A stretch of 32,000 nucleotides of DNA from Candidatus Methanoperedens sp. (GTDB lineage Archaea; Halobacteriota; Methanosarcinia; Methanosarcinales; Methanoperedenaceae). The translations under genes and the position numbers were made by a program. This document shows, piece by piece, positions 1 to 18,434 of this stretch (within the stretch, counting starts at the first letter, position 1; each line of letters begins with the position of its first letter). The stretch spans positions 60,001-92,000 of the forward strand of contig JBGQBI010000003.1 in the NCBI GenBank assembly GCA_041494705.1, read 5' to 3'. Under the pieces are notes generated by a model that was not told where the DNA came from, did no database searches, and was given only the letters and a program-made list of their open reading frames with translations.

Positions 1-706
1 GCGCTGCGGAGTTGTCGCCAGATATCCTTTCAGCAAGGAATACGGCTTTATCGAGGGATATGTTCTCAAACAGTTTTTCCACGCCTTTATGCGTATAGAA
101 ATGCCGTATCTCAAGATTAATAATGGGCTCGCCTGCAACGCTGAACCTGAAATGTCCGGGTTCTATTACACCTGCATGCACGGGTCCTACCGGAATTTCA
201 TAGACGCCTTCACCCTCAACGCGCCTGTACACATATTCACCCTCAACGCGCGACGGTTTTGTCCTTATATCAAAATCCTTCCGCAGCGGGTAAACCCCAT
301 CTGGCCAGTCCTCAAAATGCACAAGCCGCCTCGGGTCTGGATGACCGACAGGAACCAGGCCGAACATATCCTGTATCTCTCGCTCATACCAGTTGGCTGC
401 TGCAATCTTATGTGTAATGGAATTGTATCTGGGGGATTTTTCATCGACATTTATTTTTATTATAATGAACGCATCGCCTTTGTCGATGGAAAACACATAA
501 TGGACTTTGAAACAGCCTTCCTTTTTTCTCTCATCGGTTGCGAAAATTGAAACAAGCGGTATATCCAGGTGGTGGTAAATATGGTCGCAAATCTTCACAT
601 TTGCTTCTTTTTTTACGGTGAGATATGTTTCATTACGCGAGGTTATTTCATCAAGAATAGTATTCCCAAATTCCTTTTTTAAAGCCTCTATGAATTCCCT
701 GTTCAT
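1..706 (-). CDS. Group-4 hydrogenase-type large subunit homologue (HycE/HyfG-like NuoC+NuoD fusion), first 235 codons; continues past the window start
   Basis: Absent from the ORF track because there is no stop in the window. I hand-translated the reverse complement from the ATG (cat at 704-706), and the frame stays open to position 2. It reads MNREFIEALKKEFGNTILDEITSRNETYLTVKKEANVKICDHIYHHLDIPLVSIFATDERKKEGCFKVHYVFSIDKGDAF...GVYEIPVGPVHAGVIEPGHFRFSVAGEPIINLEIRHFYTHKGVEKLFENISLDKAVFLAERISGDNSAA. The ATDER and GPVHAGxIEPGHFRF blocks are typical of NuoC-like and NuoD-like/hydrogenase large subunits. ATGA start/stop overlap with the upstream gene. Confidence 0.85.
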   Translation of the reverse strand, partial: MNREFIEALKKEFGNTILDEITSRNETYLTVKKEANVKICDHIYHHLDIPLVSIFATDERKKEGCFKVHYVFSIDKGDAFIIIKINVDEKSPRYNSITHKIAAANWYEREIQDMFGLVPVGHPDPRRLVHFEDWPDGVYPLRKDFDIRTKPSRVEGEYVYRRVEGEGVYEIPVGPVHAGVIEPGHFRFSVAGEPIINLEIRHFYTHKGVEKLFENISLDKAVFLAERISGDNSAA

Positions 707-2169
707 CACCTGACAACCTCCACGACTTTCATTATCATATCATAAAAGAACGGAGGAATATAAACGCCAAGCACAATGACAAATACAATCAGAATCGACA
801 TTGCTGCAAGCGTCCACCTGCTCACTTCCCCTTTTGTTATTCCGGGTTTAGGCGTCCCGAACACCATCTTGCTTATGTTGTTGAAAAAACCTGCAAATAT
901 CATAATCAGGAATAGCAGGAATAATACCGATGAAACATAATGACCCTGCAGGAACCCGGCTGCAAGTATTGTAAATTCGCTCAGGAATATGCTGAATGGC
1001 GGTGAACCAGTGATTGCAAGCGCGCCGATGATTAGCATAGGTCCTGTTACCGGCATTGATTTCACTATCCCGCTGACTTTATCTATCTCTTTTGTTTCAT
1101 ATTTTAATAGGACATTTCCGGCTCCGAAGAACATGAGGGATTTTGTCATCGCATGGTTGAACATGTGAAGAATGGCTCCGAATATCCCGTAAACGCCGCC
1201 AAAACCGATACCGAGCGCAACTATTCCCATGTGTTCAACGCTGCTGTAGGCAAGAAGCCGTTTATAGTCTTCCTGCAAAATGATAAAAGGAACTGCGATA
1301 CCGAGAGACAGAAGCCCGAATATTATCAGGAGATTGCTTGTAAACCCGACACCGACGGATTTTGTCGCAATCGCATAAAATCTGATGATGCCGTACATGG
1401 CGCAGTTAAGAAGCACGCCTGAAAGAAGCGCGCTGACAGGCGTGGGAGCCTCGCTGTGGGCATCCGGCAGCCAGGTATGCATGGGGGCAAGCCCGGCTTT
1501 CGTGCCGTACCCTATGAGGATAAAAATGAATGCAAGTTTCATTATGGTCGGGTCGAACCGGTCTGCCACAGCTATAAGCGATGTCCAGTTAAGCGCATCT
1601 CCGGATTCTCCCAGTATCTTCACCGCCGCATAATACGTCAGAATGGTGCCAAAAAGCGCAAACGTGATGCCTACCGTGCATATTATCATGTATTTCCAGG
1701 CAGCCTCAACCGAGGATTTCCTGGAATAGAGAATCATCAGGAGCGCGGAGACAAGGGTAGTCATCTCGATGGCTATCCAGAGACCGAGGTTGTTCGTGAC
1801 ACCGACGAGAAGCATTGTGAACATGAAGAGATGGAAAAGAACGTAATACATTCTCAATCTTCTTATATCCATTATGTTGTGGTCAAATTCATGCCCCATG
1901 TAACCGATAGAGTAAAAAGACGCAACAAAACCCACAATGGATACGATAAGGACAATAAATGCGCTGAATGCGTCCGCAAACAGGGCATTTTGCCATGTGA
2001 CTATAGTACCGTATTTGAAAACATCATTTACCAGCACCAATCCAAGGGCAAGAGTAGCTATTGACCCGATAACACTTACAGTCTCGACCTGTTTTCGGGT
2101 TTTTGTAAAGAAGCATAATATGCTTGTAAGGATAGGGGCTAGAAGCAGGTATTCAATCATGGCGCTCAT
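706..2169 (-). CDS. hyfF: Hydrogenase-4 subunit F-like / NuoM-NuoN-type antiporter-like membrane subunit
   Basis: 487-aa polytopic ORF with the proton-pumping subunit signature HTWLPDAHSEAPTPVSALLSGVLLN. 4-nt overlap with the upstream gene and 1-nt overlap with the downstream gene. Confidence 0.8.
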   Translation of the reverse strand: MSAMIEYLLLAPILTSILCFFTKTRKQVETVSVIGSIATLALGLVLVNDVFKYGTIVTWQNALFADAFSAFIVLIVSIVGFVASFYSIGYMGHEFDHNIMDIRRLRMYYVLFHLFMFTMLLVGVTNNLGLWIAIEMTTLVSALLMILYSRKSSVEAAWKYMIICTVGITFALFGTILTYYAAVKILGESGDALNWTSLIAVADRFDPTIMKLAFIFILIGYGTKAGLAPMHTWLPDAHSEAPTPVSALLSGVLLNCAMYGIIRFYAIATKSVGVGFTSNLLIIFGLLSLGIAVPFIILQEDYKRLLAYSSVEHMGIVALGIGFGGVYGIFGAILHMFNHAMTKSLMFFGAGNVLLKYETKEIDKVSGIVKSMPVTGPMLIIGALAITGSPPFSIFLSEFTILAAGFLQGHYVSSVLFLLFLIMIFAGFFNNISKMVFGTPKPGITKGEVSRWTLAAMSILIVFVIVLGVYIPPFFYDMIMKVVEVVR

Positions 2170-2834
2170 CCTATCAATGTTTTAAGCATATCGGTATCGA
2201 TGCTCTCGAATGTCTTGTTTATCCTGAATATCAGGATTCCCATAATAAGAACGCCTATCAGGACATCGAAGAATATCCCGAGTTCAACAAGCAGGGGCAT
2301 ACCGTATGTCAGGGATATGGCGCCCAGGAAAAGCCCGTTCTCCATTATCAGTATTCCGAGCATCTGCATTATGGCTTTCTTACGGCTTATCATTACGAAA
2401 AGCCCGATTGAGACAAGCGACATGGATGCTGAAAGGGCAAAACTTGAAAGCCCGGATAAGATATTTATTGACCTGATAAGATAATATGAAATTACGACCA
2501 GCACCCCGCCAATAATTAGCGAAGGTGAGACATTCACATACAGTTCCACTTCCCTTTTCACCTTGATTTCACGGATTATATAGATGAAAATATAGGGAAT
2601 CACTGCGGCTTTTATGACAAGCGTGAGGAGAGCCACGATATAGATATCATTTTTTCCTGTGGAATATGCCACAATACCGGCCACGCACGCAAGCAGGAAC
2701 GATTGTATCCCGAAAGCCCTGACGCATGAATAGAGCCTCGTGGAACCGAGAATCAGGAAGGTCGAAACAAGTATCAATGCAATAATCAATTGCACCATTT
2801 TAGAGCCTAAAATAATTTCTGACATATTATCCAC
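2166..2834 (-). CDS. hyfE: Hydrogenase-4 subunit E-like small membrane subunit (NuoK-related)
   Basis: 222-aa all-helical membrane ORF. Its size and its position between the HyfC-like and HyfF-like genes match E. coli hyfE. Overlaps both neighbours. Confidence 0.6.
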   Translation of the reverse strand: MDNMSEIILGSKMVQLIIALILVSTFLILGSTRLYSCVRAFGIQSFLLACVAGIVAYSTGKNDIYIVALLTLVIKAAVIPYIFIYIIREIKVKREVELYVNVSPSLIIGGVLVVISYYLIRSINILSGLSSFALSASMSLVSIGLFVMISRKKAIMQMLGILIMENGLFLGAISLTYGMPLLVELGIFFDVLIGVLIMGILIFRINKTFESIDTDMLKTLIG

Positions 2835-3777
2835 CTTTTACAATAATAAATGAAACAAGGGAAAGGAATGAAAACATGAGCGATATCGAAAGCAGCTCCG
2901 GTAACCTGAACAATCTCCATTTTGCAGTTGAAGTTTCAACCATCGCCATAACAGCGCCCAGAACCACAATCTTAACGAAATAAACGAGCAATGCTATTAT
3001 AATCGGCGCTGCGCTTACCCCCGATGCAATTCCCCATGGGAAGAAGATGTTGGCAAGGAGTGAGAATACGAGCAATTGTTTTATCATTGCCCCGAGTTCC
3101 ACTATTGCAAGTTGTTTCCCCGAATACTCAAGTATCATTGCTTCATGAATCATGGTAAGTTCAAGGTGCGTTGCAGGATTATCCACTGGTATCCGTCCCG
3201 TTTCAGCAATAGCGATGATGAACAGGGCAACGAATGCAAGTATCTGGTATGGTGAGACTGCATCAATACCCATAGCTGATACCGTTTGCGAGATGTAGCT
3301 CAAATTCGTGGAACCTACATTGAGGGCTATGGCGAATATGGAAAGCATCAGCGCGGGCTCAACAAGGGATGCCACGAACATCTCGCGGCTCCCGCCCATC
3401 CCGCCAAAAGAGCTTCCGGCATCAAGCGAAGCAAGGGCGGTAAAGAACCGCGCCAGCGCAAAAAGATACACCACAGCTATCAGGTCGCCGGCAAAACCGA
3501 AAGGCAATTCCGTAATAAAAATGGGAATCAAAAGACCTGCCGTTAGCACAGCAACAAAAGAAACAATCGGTGCTGCATGGAAGAGCCATGAAACGTTTTG
3601 TGATACTACGGAATCCTTCTGCAAAAGTTTTGCAATATCATAATACGGCTGGAAAATGCTTGGGCCTTTGCGTACCTGGAAGAAAGCTTTTATTTTTTTG
3701 ATGATGCCACTAAGAAGCGGGGCCAGGCCGATGACGGCCAGAAGCTGAAGAATTACAAGTACAATCTGCGTAATCAT
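2827..3777 (-). CDS. hyfC: Formate hydrogenlyase subunit 4 / HyfC-HycD-NuoH-like membrane subunit
   Basis: 316-aa membrane ORF containing RIPVDNPATHLELTMIHEAMILEYSG (NuoH/HycD-type loop). Its start abuts the stop of the upstream gene (3777/3778). Confidence 0.8.
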   Translation of the reverse strand: MITQIVLVILQLLAVIGLAPLLSGIIKKIKAFFQVRKGPSIFQPYYDIAKLLQKDSVVSQNVSWLFHAAPIVSFVAVLTAGLLIPIFITELPFGFAGDLIAVVYLFALARFFTALASLDAGSSFGGMGGSREMFVASLVEPALMLSIFAIALNVGSTNLSYISQTVSAMGIDAVSPYQILAFVALFIIAIAETGRIPVDNPATHLELTMIHEAMILEYSGKQLAIVELGAMIKQLLVFSLLANIFFPWGIASGVSAAPIIIALLVYFVKIVVLGAVMAMVETSTAKWRLFRLPELLSISLMFSFLSLVSFIIVKGG

Positions 3778-5802
3778 TTAGCTGCCCCCTGCTATTACGA
3801 ACATGAAAAGAATGACGAGCGTTCCAAAAATATAAGAAAGGTATGCATGTATACTGCCTGTTTGAATGACCTTGGCACTTTGCGACTTTGCCAGAACGAA
3901 CCCTACTACTGGATTATAGATATATTCTTCGAATACCAGTTCTATCCTGGATTCAAACCTGAAGGATTCCTTGAGGAACGGAGAAGCTGAATACGTAGCT
4001 TCGGTTTGCCTTGCAGGGCGGTATAAGTTCTTAAACCACATCTCTACAGGTTTTGAGAAAGCATGGGCTGTGTATTCGTTTCTTGATGTGGATTCGGGCT
4101 GGCCGCATCCCCATGTCTCATAAATTGCCCGTGATTTCTTGATGTTATATAAAAGCAAAAACGGTATCAAGAGGAGAATAAACATCAACACAAAAAGAAT
4201 CGGGGTGGACAGGGAAATATTTGCTGGCAATACAATCGTCCCCAAAGTGCTTAATGAAAATGATTGGCTAAATGCACTTACGCCGATGAATGTCCGGGCG
4301 ACCTTATCCAGCAAGGGCAGGATGTAGAATGGTAAAATACCCAGCAGTATTGATAATACTGCAAAGAGTCCCATTCCAAGAAGCATCGGGGTGTTTGCCT
4401 CGGTTGCATGTTCCGCGTGCTCGCTTCTCGGGAGGGCTAAGAATCCTATGCCAAATGTTTTCAGGAAACAGAATGCGGCAAGCGCCCCTGTGAGGGCGAG
4501 AACGGCTGCGCTGATGGACAGCACTATCATAGTAAATGTATTAAAATTAAAACCCAGAAGTAGTGACTGGAAGGTTAGCCATTCGCTCACAAAACCGCTA
4601 AATGGCGGTAATGCAGAAATGGACAGTACCCCGACAAGGATAAGAACCGAGCTTACCGGCATTTTCTTTATGAGACCTCCGAGGTTTTCGATGTTCTTTG
4701 TATGTGTTGAAAAAATTATGGAGCCTGCGCCCATGAACAATAATCCTTTGAATACCGAATGATTGAGCAGGTGATAAAGCGCCGCTATTGCCGCAATCGC
4801 TGCAAGAGTTGGCCTTCCGCCTTCAAAAAATATCATTGAAGCGCCAATGCCAATCAAAATAATTCCCACGTTCTCAATGCTGCTGAAGGCAAGCATTCGC
4901 TTGATATCAGGCTCTACGACTGCGTATAATATGCCGATGATTGCCGAGAGCGTTCCCACGGCGAGCACAAGGTATCCCCACCATGCAAAACCGCCGCCCA
5001 AAAAATCAAAGAAAACCCGGATGAGCATAAAAATAGCGGTTTTAATCATCACTCCTGACATGAGCGCTGAAACGTTGCTCGGCGCGGCCGGGTGGGCGTA
5101 AGGAAGCCAGATGTGAAGCGGTACGATACCGGCTTTTGCCCCAAAACCAATAAGAGCGAATATGAATGCCATATCCCGCAACAGTGGAGGCATTAAAGTG
5201 CCTGCGGCGCGGAATGTTTCGAAGTTGAAGCTGCCGCTTGAACCTGCAAAAATAAGGAAGGACAGGATGATGAAGCCCGTTCCGATATGGGTCATCACGA
5301 TATAGATAAAACCGGCTTTCCTGGTTTCAGGTTTTTCATGCTCGTAAACTACAAGGAAATAAGATATCACAGACATCAATTCCCAGACTATCAGGAACAT
5401 GACCGCATTATTTGCAGTTACTACCAGTATCATTGAAATAATAAAGATGTTATATAGGAAACCAAGGTATCCGATATTCTTTTTGCCGAAATATTCTCTC
5501 ACGTACCCGATTGAATATACAGAGACTGCAAAGACTGCAATCGAGATTACAAGAATGAAAAATGCAGAAAGCGCATCCACAAAAATACCGAATTGCAGAA
5601 ATGAAGTGCCTGGAAGAGTTAATGAAAAAGTGCCGCCAAATATTACAGATAACGAGAAAACTATCCCGAAAATGGAACCAACGGCCGCGCTTATGAACGA
5701 TACAAAGGCGCAAACCCTGTCGTTTTTATTCAATAGCACAGATGATACGGCGCCAATAAGATAAAAGAGAACAAGTCCAAAAAATAAATATGTATCCATC
5801 AT
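3778..5802 (-). CDS. hyfB: Hydrogenase-4 subunit B / HycC / NuoL-like antiporter-like subunit, paralogue A
   Basis: 674 aa with LHIWLPYAHPAAPSNVSALMSGVMIKTAIF and a C-terminal extension ending in the ETWGCGQP block. Collinear with the upstream paralogue along its whole length. Confidence 0.85.
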   Translation of the reverse strand: MMDTYLFFGLVLFYLIGAVSSVLLNKNDRVCAFVSFISAAVGSIFGIVFSLSVIFGGTFSLTLPGTSFLQFGIFVDALSAFFILVISIAVFAVSVYSIGYVREYFGKKNIGYLGFLYNIFIISMILVVTANNAVMFLIVWELMSVISYFLVVYEHEKPETRKAGFIYIVMTHIGTGFIILSFLIFAGSSGSFNFETFRAAGTLMPPLLRDMAFIFALIGFGAKAGIVPLHIWLPYAHPAAPSNVSALMSGVMIKTAIFMLIRVFFDFLGGGFAWWGYLVLAVGTLSAIIGILYAVVEPDIKRMLAFSSIENVGIILIGIGASMIFFEGGRPTLAAIAAIAALYHLLNHSVFKGLLFMGAGSIIFSTHTKNIENLGGLIKKMPVSSVLILVGVLSISALPPFSGFVSEWLTFQSLLLGFNFNTFTMIVLSISAAVLALTGALAAFCFLKTFGIGFLALPRSEHAEHATEANTPMLLGMGLFAVLSILLGILPFYILPLLDKVARTFIGVSAFSQSFSLSTLGTIVLPANISLSTPILFVLMFILLLIPFLLLYNIKKSRAIYETWGCGQPESTSRNEYTAHAFSKPVEMWFKNLYRPARQTEATYSASPFLKESFRFESRIELVFEEYIYNPVVGFVLAKSQSAKVIQTGSIHAYLSYIFGTLVILFMFVIAGGS

Positions 5803-5920
5803 TTCACCGGAAAATTATCTTTTCTATCGGAAACGAACAAAAACAGTTGACGTAGTTTTAAGTATATTTTATCCCAGCTTTTTTCTATTTTTGATTTATG
5901 AACAACAGAACCACACTTTA

Positions 5921-5979
5921 CCTATGTTTCTGTATTTAAGATTTACCAGTGAAAGTATGTCGATTATTAGTGTAGGATT
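5921..5979 (-). promoter_or_regulatory. Conserved upstream element of hyfB paralogue A (candidate TATA box CTTAAATAC plus 5' leader)
   Basis: Plus strand cctatgtttctgtatttaagatttaccagtgaaagtatgtcgattattagtgtaggat aligns with 8102-8169. It lies about 120-175 nt upstream of the ATG at 5802. Confidence 0.4.
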
Positions 5980-5992
5980 GAATGGATTTTCT

Positions 5993-8023
5993 CTACGCCC
6001 CGCTTCCCACAAATATCAAAGCAATGACCAGCGTGATAAGTATGTAAAGCAGGTATGTCTGGATGTACCCCGTCTGGATAACTCTCATTAATCTCGACAC
6101 CGTAAGCACGACCCATGTGACGGGACTGTACAAATATCGCTCAAATACCGGCTCTATCTCTGACTCAAAAATCACCCTGTCCTTAAAGAACGGCGAATCC
6201 GAATAAGTGGTCTGTATCTCCCTGCGGGGACGGAATATACCGCCCAGCCACATGCGTATGGGTTTTGAGAAAGCCGTTGCAGTATATTCATTCCTGGAAG
6301 TCAAAACCGGCTGTCCGCATCCCCATGTTTCGTATTTCACCGTGTTCGTCCGGCTCATCAGCATATACATGATAACCGGAAGCGGGAGAACGACGAATAC
6401 CAGCAATGCAATCCATGTTGTGGAGATGCTTGCCGGGAACGAGGAAAGTGTCCCGATAGTCAGGTTAAAACTGATCCTGGAACTTATACTTGTTCCGACA
6501 AGCGGCGCTGATACCGAATCAAGTATGCCTACTACATAAAAGGGGAGGACGCCAAGAACAATGCACATCAAAGCAAGAACAGCCATTCCTGCAAGCATTG
6601 GCACAGGCACTTCTTTTGCGTGTTCTGCATGGGCGCTTCTTGGCAGCGCAAGAAAACTGATGCCGAACGCCTTAACAAAACACGCCGCTGCAAGAGCACC
6701 CGTTAAGGCAAGACCTGCGCCGCTAAAAAGCACTGCTATTTTCGTGATATTATCCGTGAGGTTAATGCTCAGCAACTGCGCCTGCAATGTAAGCCACTCG
6801 CTCACAAAACCATTAAAAGGCGGCAGCGCCGAGATGGATATCGCGCCTATCAGGAAAAAGAAAGCTGTCCAGGGCATTCTCTTTATCAGCCCTCCATATT
6901 CCTCGATATTTTTGGTGTGGGTTGAATATATCACCGAACCGGCGCCCATGAACAGGAGGGATTTGAACACAGCGTGGTTTATCGTGTGATAGAGGGCTGC
7001 TATCAATCCGAATGCCGCAAGATCGGGATGCCCGGATGACATGAATATCATGGAAACCCCGACTCCGATAAGGATTATCCCGATATTTTCAACGCTGTGG
7101 AAAGCAAGAAGGCGTTTCATATCGTGTTCCATTAATGCATACATCACACCGATAAGCGCGGAAACCGATGCTATAATCAACAGCAGCATACCCCACCACC
7201 AGACACCGCCGCCAAGGAAGTCAAAAGAAACCCGGATGAGCATGTAAATCGCGGTCTTAATCATTACACCCGACATCAGCGCAGATACGTTACTGGGCGC
7301 GGCCGGATGGGCGTATGGAAGCCAGATATGAAGCGGGACGATACCTGCTTTGGTTCCGAATCCGATAAGTGCGAAAAGGAAAGCCATGTCTTTTAAATGT
7401 GAAGGCATGGTCATGCCAGCGGTGCGGAATGTTTCGAAGCCGAAACTGCCGCTTGAACCTGCCATGATCAAAAACGATAAAATAATGAACCCGGTACCGA
7501 TATGGGTCATGACAATATAGATGAACCCCGCTTTCCTTGTTTCCTGTTTTTCATGCTCATAGACCACAAGAAAATATGATATTACCGACATCAGTTCCCA
7601 GACAATCAGGAACATGACGGCATTGTTCGCAGAGACAACCAGGATCATGGAGAGAATGAAAATGTTATAAAGGAAACAGAGATAGCCGATATTCTTTTTG
7701 CCGAAATATTCTTTCACGTACCCTGTTGAATATATCGAAACTGCAAAAGCTGTTATTGATATTGCAAAAATGAAGAATGCAGAGAGCTTATCTACAAAAA
7801 ATCCAAAATTCAGGATTGGCGAGCCTGAAAGAGTTAATGAGAAATCTTTGCCCGATAAAATGGAACCTGAGAATATTATCCCGAATATGGAAGCCATGGA
7901 GGCGCTCAAAAAAGATATGTAAGCGCATAAGCGGTCTTTCCTATTTAAAATAAAAGCTGAAATAGCTCCAATCAAATAAAAGAGAATCATCCCGAAAAAT
8001 AAATAGGTGTCCATCATAACCAC
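5993..8023 (-). CDS. hyfB: Hydrogenase-4 subunit B / HycC / NuoL-like antiporter-like subunit, paralogue B
   Basis: 676 aa with the same motifs (LHIWLPYAHPAAPSNVSALMSGVMIKTAIY, ETWGCGQP). By eye about two thirds identical to paralogue A. The start may be MMDTY at 8017. Confidence 0.85.
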   Translation of the reverse strand: MVMMDTYLFFGMILFYLIGAISAFILNRKDRLCAYISFLSASMASIFGIIFSGSILSGKDFSLTLSGSPILNFGFFVDKLSAFFIFAISITAFAVSIYSTGYVKEYFGKKNIGYLCFLYNIFILSMILVVSANNAVMFLIVWELMSVISYFLVVYEHEKQETRKAGFIYIVMTHIGTGFIILSFLIMAGSSGSFGFETFRTAGMTMPSHLKDMAFLFALIGFGTKAGIVPLHIWLPYAHPAAPSNVSALMSGVMIKTAIYMLIRVSFDFLGGGVWWWGMLLLIIASVSALIGVMYALMEHDMKRLLAFHSVENIGIILIGVGVSMIFMSSGHPDLAAFGLIAALYHTINHAVFKSLLFMGAGSVIYSTHTKNIEEYGGLIKRMPWTAFFFLIGAISISALPPFNGFVSEWLTLQAQLLSINLTDNITKIAVLFSGAGLALTGALAAACFVKAFGISFLALPRSAHAEHAKEVPVPMLAGMAVLALMCIVLGVLPFYVVGILDSVSAPLVGTSISSRISFNLTIGTLSSFPASISTTWIALLVFVVLPLPVIMYMLMSRTNTVKYETWGCGQPVLTSRNEYTATAFSKPIRMWLGGIFRPRREIQTTYSDSPFFKDRVIFESEIEPVFERYLYSPVTWVVLTVSRLMRVIQTGYIQTYLLYILITLVIALIFVGSGA

Positions 8024-8101
8024 CCTATCGGTTTGCTAACTCCTTATCAAATTGGAATAATCGACTCCAATTTTTTAGTTTTTGCATTAGAGCCAATGAA
8101 T

Positions 8102-8169
8102 ACCTGTGATTTGTATTTAAGATTTCCTGAAAAAGTAAGAAAATCCATATCGATTATTAATGTAAGATA
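8102..8169 (-). promoter_or_regulatory. Conserved upstream element of hyfB paralogue B (candidate TATA box CTTAAATAC plus 5' leader)
   Basis: Plus strand acctgtgatttgtatttaagatttcctgaaaaagtaagaaaatccatatcgattattaatgtaagatac is homologous to 5921-5979. It lies about 80-145 nt upstream of the ATG at 8023, in the divergent intergenic region shared with the ABC ATPase gene. Confidence 0.4.
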
Positions 8170-8216
8170 CTGGCAACTAAAGAAAGCTTATAGCCTTTAA
8201 TATCATTATTCTGTCC

Positions 8217-12671: not shown

Positions 12672-13040
12672 ATGAAGAATAAATGTCCATGCGAATCCAA
12701 ACCGGCAGAACTATGCTGCCCGGGCGATGAAAAACTTCGAAAAGATTGGCTTTTGAGTCTTGAAAACGAACACGAACCATTAAGGAAGGTATCAAAGGAA
12801 ATTGCAAGGAAATTGAAACTCCTCTCAAATTCCGACCGGCTGGAAATCCTGTTGATGCTTGAGCAGCGGGAGCACTGTATGGATGAGATGGCGCGAAAAT
12901 TAAAATCAAAAAAACCGGCTATTTCCTATCACCTGTCACTCCTGAAAAAACACGGTATGATTTGCGTAAAAAAACGCTCGCGGTTCACCTTTTATTCACT
13001 TTCTCACAGCGGTAAGAAGGCTATCGCGGCTTTGAAATAA
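12672..13040 (+). CDS. arsR: ArsR/SmtB-family metalloregulator with N-terminal vicinal cysteines
   Basis: LKLLSNSDRLEILLMLEQREHCMDEMARKLKSKKPAISYHLSLLKKHGMI is a canonical ArsR wHTH. The N-terminus carries CPCESKPAELCCPG. Confidence 0.85.
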   Translation: MKNKCPCESKPAELCCPGDEKLRKDWLLSLENEHEPLRKVSKEIARKLKLLSNSDRLEILLMLEQREHCMDEMARKLKSKKPAISYHLSLLKKHGMICVKKRSRFTFYSLSHSGKKAIAALK

Positions 13041-13044
13041 TATA

Positions 13045-13062
13045 ATTCAAATTTTTTTGAAT
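13045..13062. promoter_or_regulatory. Perfect inverted repeat ATTCAAA-TTTT-TTTGAAT between arsR and acr3 (candidate operator or attenuator hairpin)
   Basis: Read directly. It starts 5 nt after the arsR stop codon (13038-13040) and ends 45 nt before the acr3 ATG (13107). Confidence 0.35.
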
Positions 13063-13106
13063 CCATTTATGGGGTTTTATTCACAAAGAATACATGAACT
13101 GGAATA

Positions 13107-14141
13107 ATGAATGAAAAACTTTCCTGGATTAGCAGATATTTGACTTTCTGGATTCTTCTCGCCATGGCTGGCGGTATAATCACCGGCGCTGCCTATCCGG
13201 AGATAGCCAACATACTTGACGCTGTCCGCATCGAGCAGGTATCGCTTCCTATCGCTATCGGGCTTATCTGGATGATGTATCCGCCTCTGGCAGGCGTGAA
13301 ATACGAGGAACTCTCAAAAATGAAGAGGCAGGGGAAAGCTTTGACCGCATCAATCATCCAGAACTGGGTCATTGGTCCTGTTCTCATGTTCGCTCTTGCA
13401 TGGCTCTTCCTGCCGGACATGCCCGAATACCGCATTGGGTTGATATTGATTGGTCTTGCCCGCTGTATCGCCATGGTGCTTGTCTGGAACCAGCTTGCAG
13501 GCGGGGATAACGACCTGTGCGCCGTGCTTGTGGCCATGAATTCCCTATTCCAGGTGGCGCTGTATTCGGTGCTCGCGTATGTATTTATCACCATATTATC
13601 CACATGGATAGGGGGCGCAGGGGCCGGTGCGATCGTAAATATATCCGTGTGGCAGGTAGCAAAGGCGGTTTTCATCTATCTTGGTATTCCATTCATTGCA
13701 GGCATAATAACGCGGTCAGTTCTGCTGAAAAAGAAAGGGAAAATATGGTATGATAATGTGTTTATGAAAAAGCTCGGCCCGACCGCGCTTATAGGACTGC
13801 TGTTTACCATTGTTGTTATGTTCTCATTAAAAGGCGAAAAACTCGTCGAGCTGCCGTTGGATGTGTTCAGGATAGCAATCCCGCTGCTGGCCTATTTCTC
13901 TATAATGTTCGCCTTGTCCTTTTTCATGTCATACAGGCTCGGATTTTCCTATGAGCAATCCACGACGCTTGCTTTCACGGCTGCAAGCAACAATTTTGAA
14001 CTTGCAATTGCGGTGGCTATCGCAGTGTTCGGGATTGGCTCAGGTGAGGCATTTGCTGCCGTCGTTGGGCCGCTAATTGAAGTGCCTGTGATGCTGGGAC
14101 TGGTGCATGTTGCAAGAAGAGCAAGGGTTATGTGGTTTTGA
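13107..14141 (+). CDS. acr3: ACR3-family arsenite efflux permease
   Basis: 344-aa 10-TM-type ORF: ISRYLTFWILLAM..., LIGLARCIAMVLVWN (conserved Cys in the R-C-I-A-M context) and FELAIAVAI near the C-terminus. Directly downstream of arsR. Confidence 0.9.
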   Translation: MNEKLSWISRYLTFWILLAMAGGIITGAAYPEIANILDAVRIEQVSLPIAIGLIWMMYPPLAGVKYEELSKMKRQGKALTASIIQNWVIGPVLMFALAWLFLPDMPEYRIGLILIGLARCIAMVLVWNQLAGGDNDLCAVLVAMNSLFQVALYSVLAYVFITILSTWIGGAGAGAIVNISVWQVAKAVFIYLGIPFIAGIITRSVLLKKKGKIWYDNVFMKKLGPTALIGLLFTIVVMFSLKGEKLVELPLDVFRIAIPLLAYFSIMFALSFFMSYRLGFSYEQSTTLAFTAASNNFELAIAVAIAVFGIGSGEAFAAVVGPLIEVPVMLGLVHVARRARVMWF

Positions 14142-15020: not shown

Positions 15021-15725
15021 TCATGTCCCCCGCTCTGCAAGTTCTCCGTCCTTGAGCCAGACTACCGTGCTCACATACTTCATATCATCGGGTTCATGCG
15101 TCACCATCAGGATCGTGAGTCCGGTCTCCCTATTTAATTTCTGAAATAGCTCAATTATCTGTTCTGAAGAGGCGCTGTCAAGATTTGCCGTCGGCTCATC
15201 TGCAAACAATATATCAGGTTTGTTTATCAGTGCTCTTGCAATCGCCACACGTTGCTGTTCTCCTCCCGACATCTCACGGGGACGGTGATGCAGCCTTGTG
15301 CCAAGTCCGACCTGTTCAAGTGCTTCAGTCCCGGCTTTCATATACTCTTCCTTCTTCCTGCCGAGCGCCATTGCAGGCAGATAAACATTTTCAAGTGCAG
15401 TAAGCTCGGGCAGAAGTGCATACTCCTGGAAGACGTAACCGAATTTCGACAGACGGAATTTCGCCTTCCGGGATTCCGGCAGTCCTGAAATGTTATTTCC
15501 ATGAAAAATAATCTCACCGGAGTTAGGCATATCGAGTAATCCGAGCTGGTGCAGCAGTGTTGATTTGCCGCTTCCGCTCTTACCCATAATAGCTACAAAT
15601 TCCCCTCGCGAAATTTCGAATGAGACTTTGTTCAGTGCCTTCACCTTCACCTCTCCCATGCCATAAATCCTGGAAAGTCCCTTTATTTCTAAAATGGGTT
15701 CGGTAACACCTGTCATTTTAATCAC
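15021..15725 (-). CDS. ABC transporter ATP-binding protein, MacB/LolD type
   Basis: Walker A GKSGSGKST, signature MSGGEQQRVAIARAL, Walker B ILFADEPTANLD, H-loop VTHEP. 8-nt overlap with the upstream permease gene. Confidence 0.9.
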   Translation of the reverse strand: MIKMTGVTEPILEIKGLSRIYGMGEVKVKALNKVSFEISRGEFVAIMGKSGSGKSTLLHQLGLLDMPNSGEIIFHGNNISGLPESRKAKFRLSKFGYVFQEYALLPELTALENVYLPAMALGRKKEEYMKAGTEALEQVGLGTRLHHRPREMSGGEQQRVAIARALINKPDILFADEPTANLDSASSEQIIELFQKLNRETGLTILMVTHEPDDMKYVSTVVWLKDGELAERGT

Positions 15726-16917
15726 CCCATATTGTATCTATTATCGTTTTACGGACTGCCATCCATGAAGGTATAAACCCGGCAGCAATCGCAGCTATTA
15801 TCAGGCTTATTACATTCATCGAAACTTTTTCAGGAAGAATCATTAATGAAGCGAGTCCGATAGGAAATTTCAATGGATGCTCGATGAAATATGGTTTTAT
15901 GGCAAAAAATATTATTATCAAGCCGATAAATATGCCGCAAACCACGATGAACAATGCCTGGAAGATATACGATTGTATTATTATGGATTCTTCTATTCCA
16001 ACAGCCCTCAAAATCCCTATCTGCCTTCGCTTGGTGATAGTACTGGTATAGACTATTATAAAAATAGTAATGACCGCGACAAACAAGCCGATTGCAGTTA
16101 TCATCATTGCTATCATGTCAAAGCTGTTTGTTATGTTTTTTACCATGCCGGCATAGACAGTCCATGGTTTTATTTTTTCTTTAATACCCATCTCTAAAAA
16201 CTGTTTTATGTACCAGTCTTCATTTCCATTATCTCTGGTCTTGACCAGTATTTGTGAAGCTTTGTCTTCCAGACCGACTACGGATTCCATCTCTTTCTGG
16301 CTGATGTATGCCATCGTATTGGTTTGTATGAAATTCGCATCAAAAATTCCCTTTACCCTGTAGCTCTTTTTAACTCCATTATCGAACAGCACATCTATGC
16401 TATCACCAACTTTAACTCCAAGTGAACTATAGTCAAGATCACCGCCATACCCTCCTGAAATCTCTTTTCCAAGTAAGATCTCGTTCTCGTCAAGCCTGCT
16501 CAGGTAATTGCCGGCGATCAGGTAATTATGATTTGTAGTCACTTTCATCTCGTCATCCGGATTAATGGAACGCAAAGTCCAGGTTCCATGTTTATCCTTA
16601 TAGGAAAGTGTAGCGCCCGTTACATATTGTGATGAGATGCCCACTACACCCGGAACGCCTTTTATCTTTTGTTCCAGGGAATAAACATCGCTTATATATT
16701 TTTCATCCTTTTTGGGTTCGAGCACTACATTGCTATACAGAGAGTTGATTACCTGTTTGTTGGTTGCCTCAGTCACTCCAAGAAAAATGGAACCTATGAA
16801 TACTAAATTTACAAAGATTAAGGACATTATAAAGATTATTAAAAGCAGAGTGCTTTTATTTCCTTTCATCATTGACCTGTATGCCAGAAACAACGATAGT
16901 TTAACGTTATTGAACAT
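15718..16917 (-). CDS. ABC transporter permease, FtsX/MacB-like (4 TM with a large extracytoplasmic domain)
   Basis: 399 aa: N-terminal TM, a ~230-aa soluble loop, then three C-terminal TM helices with KRRQIGILRAVGIE (FtsX-domain signature region). Confidence 0.8.
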   Translation of the reverse strand: MFNNVKLSLFLAYRSMMKGNKSTLLLIIFIMSLIFVNLVFIGSIFLGVTEATNKQVINSLYSNVVLEPKKDEKYISDVYSLEQKIKGVPGVVGISSQYVTGATLSYKDKHGTWTLRSINPDDEMKVTTNHNYLIAGNYLSRLDENEILLGKEISGGYGGDLDYSSLGVKVGDSIDVLFDNGVKKSYRVKGIFDANFIQTNTMAYISQKEMESVVGLEDKASQILVKTRDNGNEDWYIKQFLEMGIKEKIKPWTVYAGMVKNITNSFDMIAMMITAIGLFVAVITIFIIVYTSTITKRRQIGILRAVGIEESIIIQSYIFQALFIVVCGIFIGLIIIFFAIKPYFIEHPLKFPIGLASLMILPEKVSMNVISLIIAAIAAGFIPSWMAVRKTIIDTIWGD

Positions 16918-16926
16918 ATGTCCTCT

Positions 16927-18105
16927 TCATTTAGTATTATCTGATTTTTTCCTGCGGTGAAGATAATATACGCCCACCGCTATGAGCGGCAGAGTCACAA
17001 TAGCCGGTGCTGCCATGCCATTTTTATTCGGGCTGCGCACATAGAGGTTTAATGATTCGGTGACAGTCCGGACACCGAGATCATCTTCGAATTCGATATT
17101 GGCAGAATAAGGAATATCGCCACCCTTCTCTGCGTAGAAGGTAAAAACGCCTGGCGCATCATCATCGGGTTTGATCTTGCCAAGGAAAGCGGTTCTTGTC
17201 CCTTTAAATGGGACATCGAGGTTGACTTTCGCAGATTTCGCCTCACCGGTTCCTGAATTTTCAATGCGCATGTTCACAGTGACAAGGTCACCTTCAACCG
17301 GATTTTGCGGCTCGATTTTCAGGTCTGAAATCGCAAGTTCTGCCTTTCCAAGGACCCGGACGCCTGCGAAACTTTTCGAACTTATGTTATCCCCGTTCTC
17401 ATCCTTATAATCCATTTTGATAGGGATTGAGTACGATGAAATTTCGGTCTTGTCTTTAACCTGGATAGCGTAGCTCAATTGAATGGATTCCCCGGATTCA
17501 AGTCTCTTTATATTCTTTGTATCAGCATCCACAGATACGAAAGGCAGACCGTTCGTGACAGCGCTTACCTGTACTTCTCGTGCCGTACCGGTTCCATCAT
17601 TTGAGACTGAAAACGTAATATTAAATTTATCCTTCGGGCTTATGCGCCCAGGATTTACCGTGATGTTAGAAATCATGAGTTGAGGTGCTCCTCGTACCAT
17701 TACCTTGAAGGTTTTGTTGGTTTCACTCAACATGTCATTGCTAAACCATCGTGCCCTGAATTCAATATCGTATGAACCGGAAGTTGCGAGAGGATCGACA
17801 TGAAGCAGATAGGTTTCAGCTACAGCGCCATATTTGATAATCCTTCCCTCATCGATAATGCGGTCATTTTCATTTTTAAGTTTAATTGGCGAGTCAGGAA
17901 GAATCTCAAGCCTTACATTTTCTATATCGCTAAATTGATTATCAAGCCTGACTGACAGTGTTAAATCCTGACCCGGTTCAACTGGCTGGGGTGAGAGTTG
18001 ATCCAGTACGATTTCAAGTTCAGCGTTAGCAGGAGCAATCATGAATATGAGTGCAAACACTGCAACCATAGTTAGTATTCTCTGTTTATTCATTTTTTTC
18101 ACCAC
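16927..18105 (-). CDS. COG1361/CARDB-type surface protein (signal peptide, three Ig-like repeats, C-terminal TM anchor)
   Basis: Signal-like MVAVFALIFMIAPANA. Three repeats of the form L-x-I-S-x-(I/L)-x-(V/I)-x-P...N-x-G-T-G-x-A (for example ISNITVNPGRISPKDKFNITFSVSNDGTGTAREVQVS and ISDLKIEPQNPVEGDLVTVNMRIENSGTGEAKSAKVNL). C-terminal PAIVTLPLIAVGVYYLHRRKK. The start may be MNKQ at 18093. Confidence 0.7.
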   Translation of the reverse strand: MVKKMNKQRILTMVAVFALIFMIAPANAELEIVLDQLSPQPVEPGQDLTLSVRLDNQFSDIENVRLEILPDSPIKLKNENDRIIDEGRIIKYGAVAETYLLHVDPLATSGSYDIEFRARWFSNDMLSETNKTFKVMVRGAPQLMISNITVNPGRISPKDKFNITFSVSNDGTGTAREVQVSAVTNGLPFVSVDADTKNIKRLESGESIQLSYAIQVKDKTEISSYSIPIKMDYKDENGDNISSKSFAGVRVLGKAELAISDLKIEPQNPVEGDLVTVNMRIENSGTGEAKSAKVNLDVPFKGTRTAFLGKIKPDDDAPGVFTFYAEKGGDIPYSANIEFEDDLGVRTVTESLNLYVRSPNKNGMAAPAIVTLPLIAVGVYYLHRRKKSDNTK

Positions 18106-18325
18106 TTTTTTTAATGATCTTCTTCAACTCGAGACTTGATATGCCCAAGTCTATTACACCGAATTTGCCCGCGACCCTCAGGATTTCGCCTTCGACCATC
18201 GTAATCTCATCGGCTTCCAGGGTGCCTCCGAACTCAAATTCCTCCTTGTAGTCGCATCTGATTTTGAGGTCTTTTATCATGTTTGGCTTCAGGGTCACAT
18301 AGAATGCAAATTCGTGTCCGACCAT
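18086..18325 (-). CDS. Hypothetical 79-aa soluble protein, first gene of the COG1361/ABC operon
   Basis: Start taken at MVGHEF (ATG 18325, GGTGA 8-12 nt upstream). The track extension to 18424 runs through the duplicated promoter module and is not credible coding sequence. Confidence 0.5.
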   Translation of the reverse strand: MVGHEFAFYVTLKPNMIKDLKIRCDYKEEFEFGGTLEADEITMVEGEILRVAGKFGVIDLGISSLELKKIIKKSGEKNE

Positions 18326-18434
18326 TTTTTTTGTCACCAGGAGAAAAATGGATTTGGAAATGCTTAAATAAAATCTGGCACGAATATGGAGTAAGACAAC
18401 AGGCATGTAACAAAGGTTACACAAATGTAACGAG
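18323..18434 (-). promoter_or_regulatory. Promoter/operator module copy 1: triple TGTAAC/GTTACA half-sites, TATA-like TTTATTTAAG, GGTGA RBS
   Basis: About 112 nt that align by hand with 21486-21597 at about 100 identical positions. TGTAAC-N4-GTTACA-N4-TGTAAC lies at 18406-18431, the AT-rich box at 18362-18375 and tcacc (GGTGA) at 18334-18338. Confidence 0.6.

Follow-up and report, generated by a model that had tools for sequence, protein, structure and literature searches.

The first lines of a 32,000-nucleotide stretch of Candidatus Methanoperedens sp. (assembly GCA_041494705.1, contig JBGQBI010000003.1, positions 60,001 to 92,000; hereafter, the window) lie inside an operon for a membrane-bound complex related to hydrogenase 4. 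On the minus strand, two tandem hyfB-like genes are followed by hyfC-, hyfE- and hyfF-like genes and by the gene of a large subunit, which is cut by the window edge (Table 1). We call this subunit EhrL, after the Ehr complexes, whose name stands for energy-converting hydrogenase-related. Together with the genes past the edge, the operon counts eight genes, all with intact reading frames. The minus strand from 706 to 1 translates into 235 uninterrupted codons, which contain GPVHAGVIEPGHFRF and end in FLAERISGDNSAA. This is residue for residue the hand translation of the original prediction for this DNA, which was made from the sequence alone. The same prediction described a translationally coupled, Hyf-like membrane arm (HyfB twice, HyfC, HyfE and HyfF) without a hyfD between hyfC and hyfE. 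Our annotation recovers this subunit set and likewise shows hyfC followed by hyfE, without a hyfD-like gene in between. The coupling holds from the second hyfB onwards, where junctions abut or overlap (TGATG, ATGA, TAAATG), and fails between the two hyfB copies, which are 190 nt apart. The hyfF stop overlaps the EhrL start (TGATG), hyfE overlaps the hyfF start (ATGA), and the stop of hyfB copy 2 abuts the hyfC start.

The membrane arm has three antiporter-type subunits (HyfB, HyfB' and HyfF), all matching Proton_antipo_M (E=5e-54 to 1e-57) and with the key charged residues visible. Both HyfB copies, 66% identical to each other, score above the 667-bit cut-off of the NCBIfam model "hydrogenase 4 subunit B" (731 bits for copy 1, 704 bits for copy 2). 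HyfF reaches 570 bits with "hydrogenase 4 subunit F", slightly below the 610-bit cut-off. Its best solved relative is MbhH (6cfw_H, E=2e-42), and the glutamate of transmembrane helix 5 and the lysine of helix 7 can be seen in the alignment. HyfE matches the NCBIfam model "hydrogenase 4 membrane subunit" below its cut-off (E=5e-27) and Pfam Oxidored_q2 (E=9e-5). HyfC, which links the peripheral arm with the membrane arm, aligns over its full length with HycD (7z0s_D, E=7e-51).

The remainder of the operon was read from L001, a 72-kb JGI metagenome contig to which a search for the exact HyfF protein had led. Over their entire overlap of 12,104 nt, L001 and the reverse-complemented window are 100% identical, so that the contig truly continues the window. 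It completes EhrL to 522 amino acids, with the remaining 287 codons outside the window, and adds two iron-sulfur subunits and a gene for a universal-stress-protein (Usp). The HyfH-like protein aligns over residues 2-108 with HycF (HycF residues 2-110, E=9e-26), including both ferredoxin motifs. In the small subunit, the motifs SCNAC, GSCAC and PGCPP align with those of HycG (E=1e-45) and MbhJ. The iron-sulfur relay is thus intact, as all twelve iron-sulfur cysteines of HyfH and HyfI are kept in Methanoperedens. An electron-input module of the HyfA/HycB, FdhF, NuoEFG or FpoF type was not found at the locus.

Table 1. Genes and elements of the Ehr operon and its surroundings; positions are those of the window unless L001 is named.
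Feature	Position	Strand	Size	Remarks
EhrL large subunit, first 235 codons	1..706	-	235 codons	ATG at 706, open frame past window edge
HyfF-like antiporter-type subunit	706..2169	-	487 aa	Proton_antipo_M E=5e-54
HyfE-like small membrane subunit	2166..2834	-	219-222 aa	NuoK-like C-terminal part; NCBIfam and Pfam
HyfC/HycD/NuoH-like subunit	2827..3777	-	316 aa	Pfam NADHdh E=1e-44
HyfB-like antiporter-type subunit, copy 2	3778..5802	-	674 aa	NCBIfam hydrogenase 4 subunit B
Intergenic region between hyfB copies	5803..5992	-	190 nt	promoter-like element inside
TATA-like AAATCTTAAATACA	5931-5944	-		alignment of the two upstream regions
Element TACACTAATAATCGACAT	5957-5974	-		alignment of the two upstream regions
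HyfB-like antiporter-type subunit, copy 1	5993..8023	-	674-676 aa	NCBIfam hydrogenase 4 subunit B
Operon upstream region	8024..8216	-		
TATA-like AAATCTTAAATACA	8112-8125	-		in operon upstream region
Element TACATTAATAATCGATAT	8147-8164	-		in operon upstream region
EhrL, full length	L001:11399-12967		522 aa	
HyfH-like subunit	L001:12976-13314		112 aa	two CxxCxxCxxxCP motifs; 2x[4Fe-4S], eight Cys
NuoB/HyfI-like small subunit	L001:13311-13799		162 aa	four Cys ligands
Usp gene	L001:13796-14230		144 aa	start overlaps small-subunit stop
ArsR-family regulator gene, then SBF/ACR3-type transporter gene	12672-14141	+		
ABC-ATPase/FtsX-permease/surface-protein cassette	15021-18424	-		
ABC-ATPase/FtsX-permease/surface-protein cassette	L001:15097-18181	-		
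Partial CdhD match	24753-25853	-	366 aa	residues 73-165
Nitroreductase-family gene	25858-26433	-		

EhrL shares homology and fold with the large subunits of group 4 [NiFe] hydrogenases. Residues 29-149 match Pfam Complex1_30kDa (NuoC-type, E=2e-27), so the protein is a NuoC/NuoD fusion, built like HycE and HyfG. This match and the identical public contig establish EhrL as a real gene. HMMER aligned residues 3-521 with Escherichia coli HycE (PDB 7z0s_E, E=4e-103). Foldseek placed the same chain first, at a template modelling (TM) score of 0.85, followed by the fused NuoCD of complex I structures. For the fold assignment, and for this only, we used an AlphaFold model of EhrL with a predicted TM score of 0.83.

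The Ni-Fe centre of a hydrogenase is bound by two motifs, L1 (R-x-C-G-x-C-x-x-x-H) and L2 (D-P-C-x-x-C-x-x-[RH]), which contribute two cysteine ligands each. In EhrL, the L1 position reads ERISGDNSAAH (residues 226-236, the window ending at residue 235), against DRVCGICGFAH in HycE. The HMMER alignment sets "flaerisgdnsaahaiaf" opposite "FLSDRVCGICGFAHSTAY" and, within it, "aerisgdnsaah" opposite "SDRVCGICGFAH". The two L1 cysteines are replaced by Ser229 and Asn232, and the histidine is retained. At the other end, the EhrL C-terminus SLSLSYSGNDM* aligns with SLDPCYSCTDR of HycE, placing Ser516 and Gly519 opposite the two L2 cysteines. All four [NiFe] cysteines are thus substituted. EhrL has six cysteines in total, and neither CxxC nor CxxxC occurs anywhere in its 522 residues. 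Pfam NiFeSe_Hases gives a weak, partial match (E=1e-8, residues 208-273).

The features of [NiFe] maturation are missing as well. The EhrL stop codon directly follows the methionine that aligns with the final L2 residue, an arginine in HycE. EhrL therefore has no protease-cleaved C-terminal extension, which measures 20-34 residues in group 4a representatives. No hyp, hycI, hycH, hyfA/hycB or fdh genes were found in the window and the 9 kb beyond it (about 41 kb), nor were any of these found beside the Methanoperedens nitroreducens copy. On these points the original prediction stood up well. It had read the L1 cysteines as S and N, and the HycE alignment gives the same residues. It had also allowed that a CxxC might simply lie further downstream, or that the C-terminal ligands, a protease site and linked hyp genes might be intact; the complete protein has no CxxC, its L1 position already lies inside the window, and the L2 cysteines, extension and linked hyp genes are all absent. 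Among the further genes that it named, a small subunit and a HyfH-like protein are present, while HyfA-like, hyp and hycI genes were not found nearby.

The loss of ligands is a family trait. The 120 best database homologues of EhrL (52-96% identity), which come from Methanoperedens, ANME-2, Methanosarcinaceae, Methanomethylovorans and Methanomassiliicoccales, all carry ER[IV]SGD[NST]..[AS][HN] and end in ...LSY[SA]G[NS]D[LMIN]-stop. The replacement motifs recur in the best 80 loci, where the C-terminus is free of cysteines in all but two (L045 and L062), in which the 3' end of the gene is cut short or read through. Gene order, B-C-E-F-G-(H)-I, is kept across these loci from archaea to Nitrospira, and 26 of the records are Methanoperedens or Methanoperedenaceae genomes. 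When species-representative genomes were scanned, a relative turned up in at least 581 of them. The archaeal carriers are Methanoperedens (including M. nitroreducens ANME-2d, BLZ2 and Mnv1), Methanosarcinales, Methanomassiliicoccales, Methanocella and Hydrothermarchaeota; the bacterial ones are Nitrospira, Planctomycetota, Verrucomicrobiota, Omnitrophota, Fraserbacteria, Acetothermia, Acidobacteria and Clostridia.

In eight loci of Methanomassiliicoccales (L035, L036, L039, L040, L047, L055, L060 and L074), the immediate neighbour of the Ehr operon is a canonical Ech-type operon. The large subunit of this neighbour has about 360 residues and ends in DPCICCTDR, so that none of its L2 cysteines is missing. 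These genomes thus carry a nickel-free and a nickel-containing complex next to each other. Our literature search found no published description of the orthologous Methanomassiliicoccus complex.

Ehr complexes are defined by a large subunit that resembles those of group 4 and lacks the conserved Ni-Fe-binding residues (PMC6349859, PMC10284858, PMC10432482); no function has been assigned to them in these or related papers (PMC6349859, PMC10284858, PMC7894505, PMC10432482). The Methanoperedens locus fits this definition. As in the Ehr of Geobacter sulfurreducens (GSU0739-45), Nitrospira, ammonia-oxidising archaea and Margulisbacteria, there is a NuoB-like small subunit together with NuoL-, NuoH- and HyfE-like membrane subunits; for Geobacter, this comparison follows the published description instead of an EhrL alignment. 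The Nitrospira loci share 49% identity, the SGD and LSY[SA]GNDL motifs and the gene order with Methanoperedens. With four ligands lost and the replacement motifs found family-wide, the original view of an Ehr-like complex in place of a hydrogenase is upheld. The locus very probably encodes a functional Ehr-type membrane complex of the Methanoperedens chromosome. As the class is already known from both archaea and bacteria, it adds a documented member and no new kind of system.

The same locus has been published under another name. The papers on M. nitroreducens MPEBLZ and BLZ2 describe an "Ech hydrogenase (echABCEF, missing echD)" (PMC4683180, PMC5690323). Arshad et al., in their Supplementary Table 2, assign EchA, B, E, F and C to ANME2D_02724, 02723, 02720, 02719 and 02718 (PMC4683180). 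In the M. nitroreducens ANME-2d locus (L012), seven genes follow in the order hyfB, C, E, F, large subunit, hyfH and small subunit, which reproduces the numbering from ANME2D_02724 to 02718 with the labels EchA, B, -, -, E, F, C. Between ANME-2d and BLZ2 we obtained identities of 62% for HyfB, 78% for HyfC, 75% for the large subunit, 71% for HyfH and 92% for the small subunit. The published values for MPEBLZ (BLZ1) against ANME2D are 63% for EchA, 78% for B, 78% for E, 71% for F and 92% for C (PMC4683180). Because gene order and numbering fit, and the identities mirror the published ones, the "Ech" of the literature is this Ehr locus. The ANME-2d and BLZ2 large subunits are both Cys-free, and, judged by domain content, the large subunit itself contains the "missing EchD", fused to it as a NuoC-like domain at the N-terminus. 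In the literature searched, we found neither a relabelling of the Methanoperedens locus as Ehr nor a discussion of its role.

A working energy-converting [NiFe] hydrogenase of the Ech or Hyf type, oxidising ferredoxin and giving off H2 as in the early models, has the "Ech" label on its side (PMC4683180, PMC5690323), as well as the JGI name of the homologues, "Ni,Fe-hydrogenase III large subunit", and the weak NiFeSe_Hases match. Set against these are the four replaced ligand cysteines, the missing CxxC and maturation peptide, the lack of nearby hyp or hycI genes, and the fixation of the replacements across the family. The HydDB paper lists two group 3b hydrogenases only, and no group 4 enzyme, for M. 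nitroreducens (PMC5037454), and functional hydrogenases are stated to be absent in BLZ2-type strains (PMC13079737). Later papers, PMC7327174 among them, speak of group 1 and group 3 hydrogenases only, or describe functional hydrogenases as absent. Furthermore, since Methanomassiliicoccales keep a true Ech beside their Ehr, the two are not interchangeable. The ligand loss rules out the hydrogenase at the sequence level, and we give it next to no credence.

Could the operon instead be the relic of a decaying hydrogenase, without present function? The catalytic ligands are gone, and transcripts were low in one bioreactor study (PMC4683180). However, pairwise ratios of nonsynonymous to synonymous substitution rates (dN/dS) of the large-subunit gene lie at 0.04-0.10 among Methanoperedens genomes, and the Cys-free EhrL is under strong purifying selection. 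The eight frames are intact, their junctions in the window overlap or abut, the operon recurs in the many Methanoperedens and other genomes counted above, and the replacement residues are conserved. Selection and conservation contradict a relic, which is extremely improbable.

For the phylogenetic placement, a HMMER search of the whole library returned 1,241 cluster representatives at E<=1e-30. We aligned 126 sequences, namely those of the top 150 representatives that have 480 residues or more, mostly from 50%-identity clusters, plus ten close homologues. Ninety-five lack the cysteines, 21 have all cysteines and no extension, and ten are group-4a-like, with DPCxxCxxR followed by 20-34 residues. 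The tree is a neighbour-joining tree with bootstrap, built on sequences from our own search and not on Geobacter EhrL or the HydDB reference sets. In it, EhrL falls within a large clade of Cys-less sequences, Nitrospira-type ones among them. Group 4a splits off with 100% bootstrap, as outgroup to EhrL and its Cys-bearing relatives, and the Methanosarcinales clade holding EhrL likewise receives 100%. Strict monophyly of the Cys-less sequences reaches only 2%, because a few of them fall among the Cys-bearing grade, and P0150, with its CxxxC, among the Cys-less. Both a single loss of the cysteines and multiple losses are compatible with this tree.

Sequences of intermediate type were also encountered (P0150, P0152, P0252, P0229, P0254 and P0263). 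Several keep the first L1 cysteine only (ER.CGD...), and P0150, which clusters with the Cys-less sequences, has the L1 CxxC and a C-terminal CYSAC (CxxxC). Such sequences could be stages on the way to losing the Ni-Fe site, or cases in which it was lost independently.

The E. coli Hyc and Hyf complexes (group 4a, 7Z0S) are the best solved relatives of all peripheral and linker subunits. They share with the Methanoperedens complex the fused NuoC-NuoD large subunit and the order hyfB-C-(D)-E-F-G-H-I. Their Ni-Fe cysteines, the 20-34-residue extension, HyfA/HycB, FdhF, HyfD, HycH and HycI have no counterpart here. HycE is the nearest solved structure, yet the nearest Cys-bearing relatives are not group 4a. 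The closest representative, P0121 (52% identity), is a Cys-bearing "hydrogenase large subunit" from Planctomycetota, and another comes from Desulfotomaculum. These extension-less relatives (Candidatus Wujingus californicus/Planctomycetota; Desulfotomaculum sp.) are, at 48-52% identity, the closest outside the Cys-less clade. They have the same length as EhrL, end right after L2 (F[EN]LCY[SA]C.DR*) and share the beta1-beta2 loop GPVHAGxIEPGHFRF. They differ in keeping the four cysteines, and in having hydrophobic or small residues where Ehr has Asp231, Asp282 and Asp485. Probably they correspond to HydDB group 4f, the hydrogenase group to which Ehr has been reported to be phylogenetically closest (PMC10284858).

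The residues that set the Cys-less clade apart are Ser229, Asp231, Ser/Thr/Asn232, Asp282, Asp485, Ser516 and Gly519. Among the 95 Cys-less sequences, Ser is found at residue 229 in 72, at 516 in 82, and Gly at 519 in 85; the Cys-bearing relatives have Cys at all three. Asp occupies residue 231 in 75 (Val, Ala or Ile in the Cys-bearing relatives), residue 282 in 70 (Gly or hydrophobic) and residue 485 in 60 (Ser or Ala). Glu182 in the beta1-beta2 loop (90/95), His236, Arg464 and Asp521 are inherited from hydrogenases. From the alignment we infer that the replacement positions surround the former metal site.

Comparison extends to other members of group 4 descent. Methanosarcina Ech (group 4e) is likewise membrane-bound and presumed to be ferredoxin-linked, with homologous subunits of the EchA, B, C, E and F type. 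True Ech, however, has six subunits, among them a separate EchD and a single antiporter-type subunit, and a large subunit of about 360 residues ending in DPCxCCTDR. The Methanoperedens complex has a 522-residue, Cys-less and NuoC-fused large subunit and three to four antiporter-type subunits. Mbx/Mbs (Pyrococcus furiosus, 6U8Y) and complex I/Fpo/Fqo are further group 4 descendants in which the Ni-Fe site was lost, and the iron-sulfur relay and ion arm were kept. EhrL is far more distant from MbsL (6u8y_L, E=2e-30) and Nqo4 (E=1e-40) than from HycE (4e-103). Mbx/Mbs is encoded by a 13-subunit, Mrp-linked operon, in contrast to the eight genes of Hyf type here. With its weak MbsL score and different subunit inventory, an assignment to Mbx/Mbs was rejected.

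The likeness to complex I deserves separate mention. A second complex-I-type dehydrogenase (a Fqo, Fpo or Nuo paralogue), with F420H2 or NADH as donor, is hinted at by the NCBI name of the homologues, "NADH-quinone oxidoreductase subunit C", by the NuoCD structures that come next after HycE, and by Asp282, which falls opposite Asp139 of the quinone site in Thermus Nqo4. But neither an FpoF/FqoF or NuoEFG module nor NuoA or NuoJ genes are present in the operon, and none of the Nuo and Fpo models of NCBIfam comes anywhere near its cut-off (75 bits against 1156, for example). HycE, HycD, HycG and HycF are by far the nearest solved relatives, and the quinone-ligand positions are not conserved. Such a paralogue is therefore very improbable.

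The electron-input side varies along the family. In Methanoperedens, Methanosarcinales and Methanomassiliicoccales, HyfH is a separate, fully liganded 2x[4Fe-4S] protein and a Usp gene is linked, while Nitrospira and Planctomycetota have only an N-terminal stub of HyfH (MFRILKKSLKTG...), fused to the small subunit. Between these ends lies what looks like a decay series. A separate gene is found in Methanoperedens and Methanomassiliicoccales; in Methanocella, Hydrothermarchaeota, Omnitrophota and Clostridia, HyfH and the small subunit form one fused protein that keeps both cluster motifs; and in Fraserbacteria, Acetothermia, Verrucomicrobia and Acidobacteria the fused HyfH has lost cysteines. 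The small-subunit genes of this series are those of L045, L049, L051, L053, L057, L061, L065, L068, L069, L071, L080 and L082. The cluster ligands of the small subunit itself are kept even in bacterial members.

A Usp gene lies 3' of the operon in every long-enough Methanoperedens and Methanosarcinales locus. In Methanomassiliicoccales and Methanocella it stands beside the operon in convergent orientation, and next to bacterial operons it was not detected. In archaea, the Usp may help to regulate the complex as its partner. In the main rival reading, the complex would be an Mrp-like cation/proton antiporter without net electron transfer, and its peripheral arm a redox or stress sensor that gates ions together with the Usp. 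The progressive loss of the HyfH iron-sulfur domain in bacteria, with the rest of the complex kept, would suit a sensor, as would the Usp, whose gene is translationally coupled in Methanoperedens and a direct neighbour in Methanomassiliicoccales and Methanocella. So would the aspartates 231, 282 and 485 in place of hydrophobic or small residues round the lost metal site, and the differing membrane electron carriers of the host organisms. On the other hand, all twelve iron-sulfur cysteines are kept in Methanoperedens, where a three-cluster wire would be costly for sensing alone, the small-subunit ligands persist in bacteria too, and a demonstrated precedent is lacking. We regard a sensor-gated antiporter as unlikely, though it is the alternative to be taken most seriously.

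A role in formate metabolism has been proposed for some Ehr complexes, as the membrane module of a system formed with a formate dehydrogenase. This hypothesis was published for Margulisbacteria (PMC6349859), the Ehr subunits of Geobacter are more abundant with formate (PMC7894505), and the subunit set is similar to that of formate hydrogenlyase-2. In Methanoperedens, however, no formate dehydrogenase, HyfA/HycB or NuoE/F-like gene was found in the roughly 41 kb or beside the M. nitroreducens copy, and in archaea the Usp is the sole conserved extra neighbour. A formate-dependent system is improbable at this locus.

We tentatively favour, at somewhat less than even chances, a complex that is fed by ferredoxin, translocates ions and hands its electrons to something other than protons. 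Reduced ferredoxin would be the donor and, as with Ech and Mbh, would dock on the surface of HyfH and the large subunit. Electrons would then pass three [4Fe-4S] clusters to a re-modelled pocket between the large subunit, the small subunit and HyfC, where the non-proton acceptor would be reduced. A conformational and electrostatic change could in turn drive H+ or Na+ through the antiporter-type subunits. For Methanoperedens, the menaquinone pool would be the most plausible acceptor, because these archaea are without Rnf and their ferredoxin sink is unresolved. Both points have been stated in the literature, the latter as an unresolved route of ferredoxin re-oxidation (PMC4683180, PMC7327174).

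Several observations weigh against ferredoxin-fed electron transfer of this kind. Nqo4 binds its quinone with His38 and Tyr87, which fall opposite Ile181 and Gly230 of EhrL, and the AlphaFold model is of low local confidence (predicted local distance difference test below 50) at residues 156-208 and 518-523, at or beside the former metal site. Methanomassiliicoccales and Methanocella, which carry the family, are not known to possess a membrane quinone or methanophenazine; a quinone acceptor therefore cannot be a family-wide rule. Likewise, the HyfH-like domain is often fused, Cys-depleted or a stub in bacteria, which weakens the case for ferredoxin-type input as essential throughout the family. 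Finally, transcripts of the M. nitroreducens MPEBLZ locus were low, at 52-80 reads per kilobase per million (RPKM) compared with 946-1396 for HdrDE (PMC4683180).

In its most specific form, ferredoxin-fed electron transfer would make the archaeal Ehr the missing energy-conserving ferredoxin oxidase of Methanoperedens, an organism with neither Rnf nor a true Ech, passing electrons to menaquinone or another non-proton acceptor via a site unlike that of complex I. This more speculative proposal, to which we would give about one chance in four, builds on the three-cluster wire and on a conserved, carboxylate-rich pocket at the place of the former Ni-Fe centre, which would comprise Asp231, Asp282, Asp485, Glu182, His236, Ser229 and Ser516.

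The lineage of the window differs from other Ehr in its tandem hyfB and a duplicated promoter-like element. The second hyfB is confined to the Methanoperedens subclade nearest the window, and M. nitroreducens and BLZ2 have one copy. Upstream, both hyfB copies share the element TACAYTAATAATCGAYAT, with AAATCTTAAATACA about 12-21 nt further on. The 18-mer occurs exactly twice in the window, where 0.02 occurrences are expected. Its core 13-mer, TAATAATCGAYAT, also matches other Methanoperedens loci, including that of BLZ2; in L001, the only contig in which positions were checked, it lies about 145-170 nt upstream of the hyfB starts. The element looks like a duplicated archaeal promoter plus operator and would provide the operon with two entry points. 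Scans of the window for tRNA and Rfam families gave no matches, and a sigma-70 promoter/terminator scan, whose model is not applicable to an archaeon, gave background-level counts.

Among the neighbours in the window, an ArsR-family regulator gene is followed by one for an SBF/ACR3-type transporter, a pair typical of an arsenite-efflux cassette. Two cassettes of ABC-ATPase, FtsX-permease and surface-protein genes flank the Ehr operon in opposite orientation. They were considered as a recent repeat; their permeases are only 28% identical, which marks them as old paralogues. Further along, the gene of a 366-residue protein with a partial match to CdhD, the delta subunit of CO dehydrogenase/acetyl-CoA synthase, adjoins a nitroreductase-family gene and is not part of a cdh operon or close to one.

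Archaea of the genus Methanoperedens use nitrate or metal oxides to oxidise methane. Early genome-based models of this metabolism filled the ferredoxin gap with the H2-producing "Ech hydrogenase" (PMC4683180). A Cys-free Ehr cannot hold a Ni-Fe centre, and H2 evolution via this locus should therefore be dropped from the models, with the published label of the Methanoperedens locus corrected from Ech to Ehr. Mbx/Mbs and complex I show that Ni-Fe-less descendants of group 4 can work with non-proton acceptors. With its full iron-sulfur relay and three to four antiporter-type pump modules, Ehr is a candidate ferredoxin-dependent coupling site, and the archaeal form, whose electron-input module is intact, is probably the most informative variant for purification. 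Should it prove to be a ferredoxin oxidase, Ehr would represent a living intermediate on the way from group 4 hydrogenases to complex I, and a new coupling site in the anaerobic oxidation of methane.

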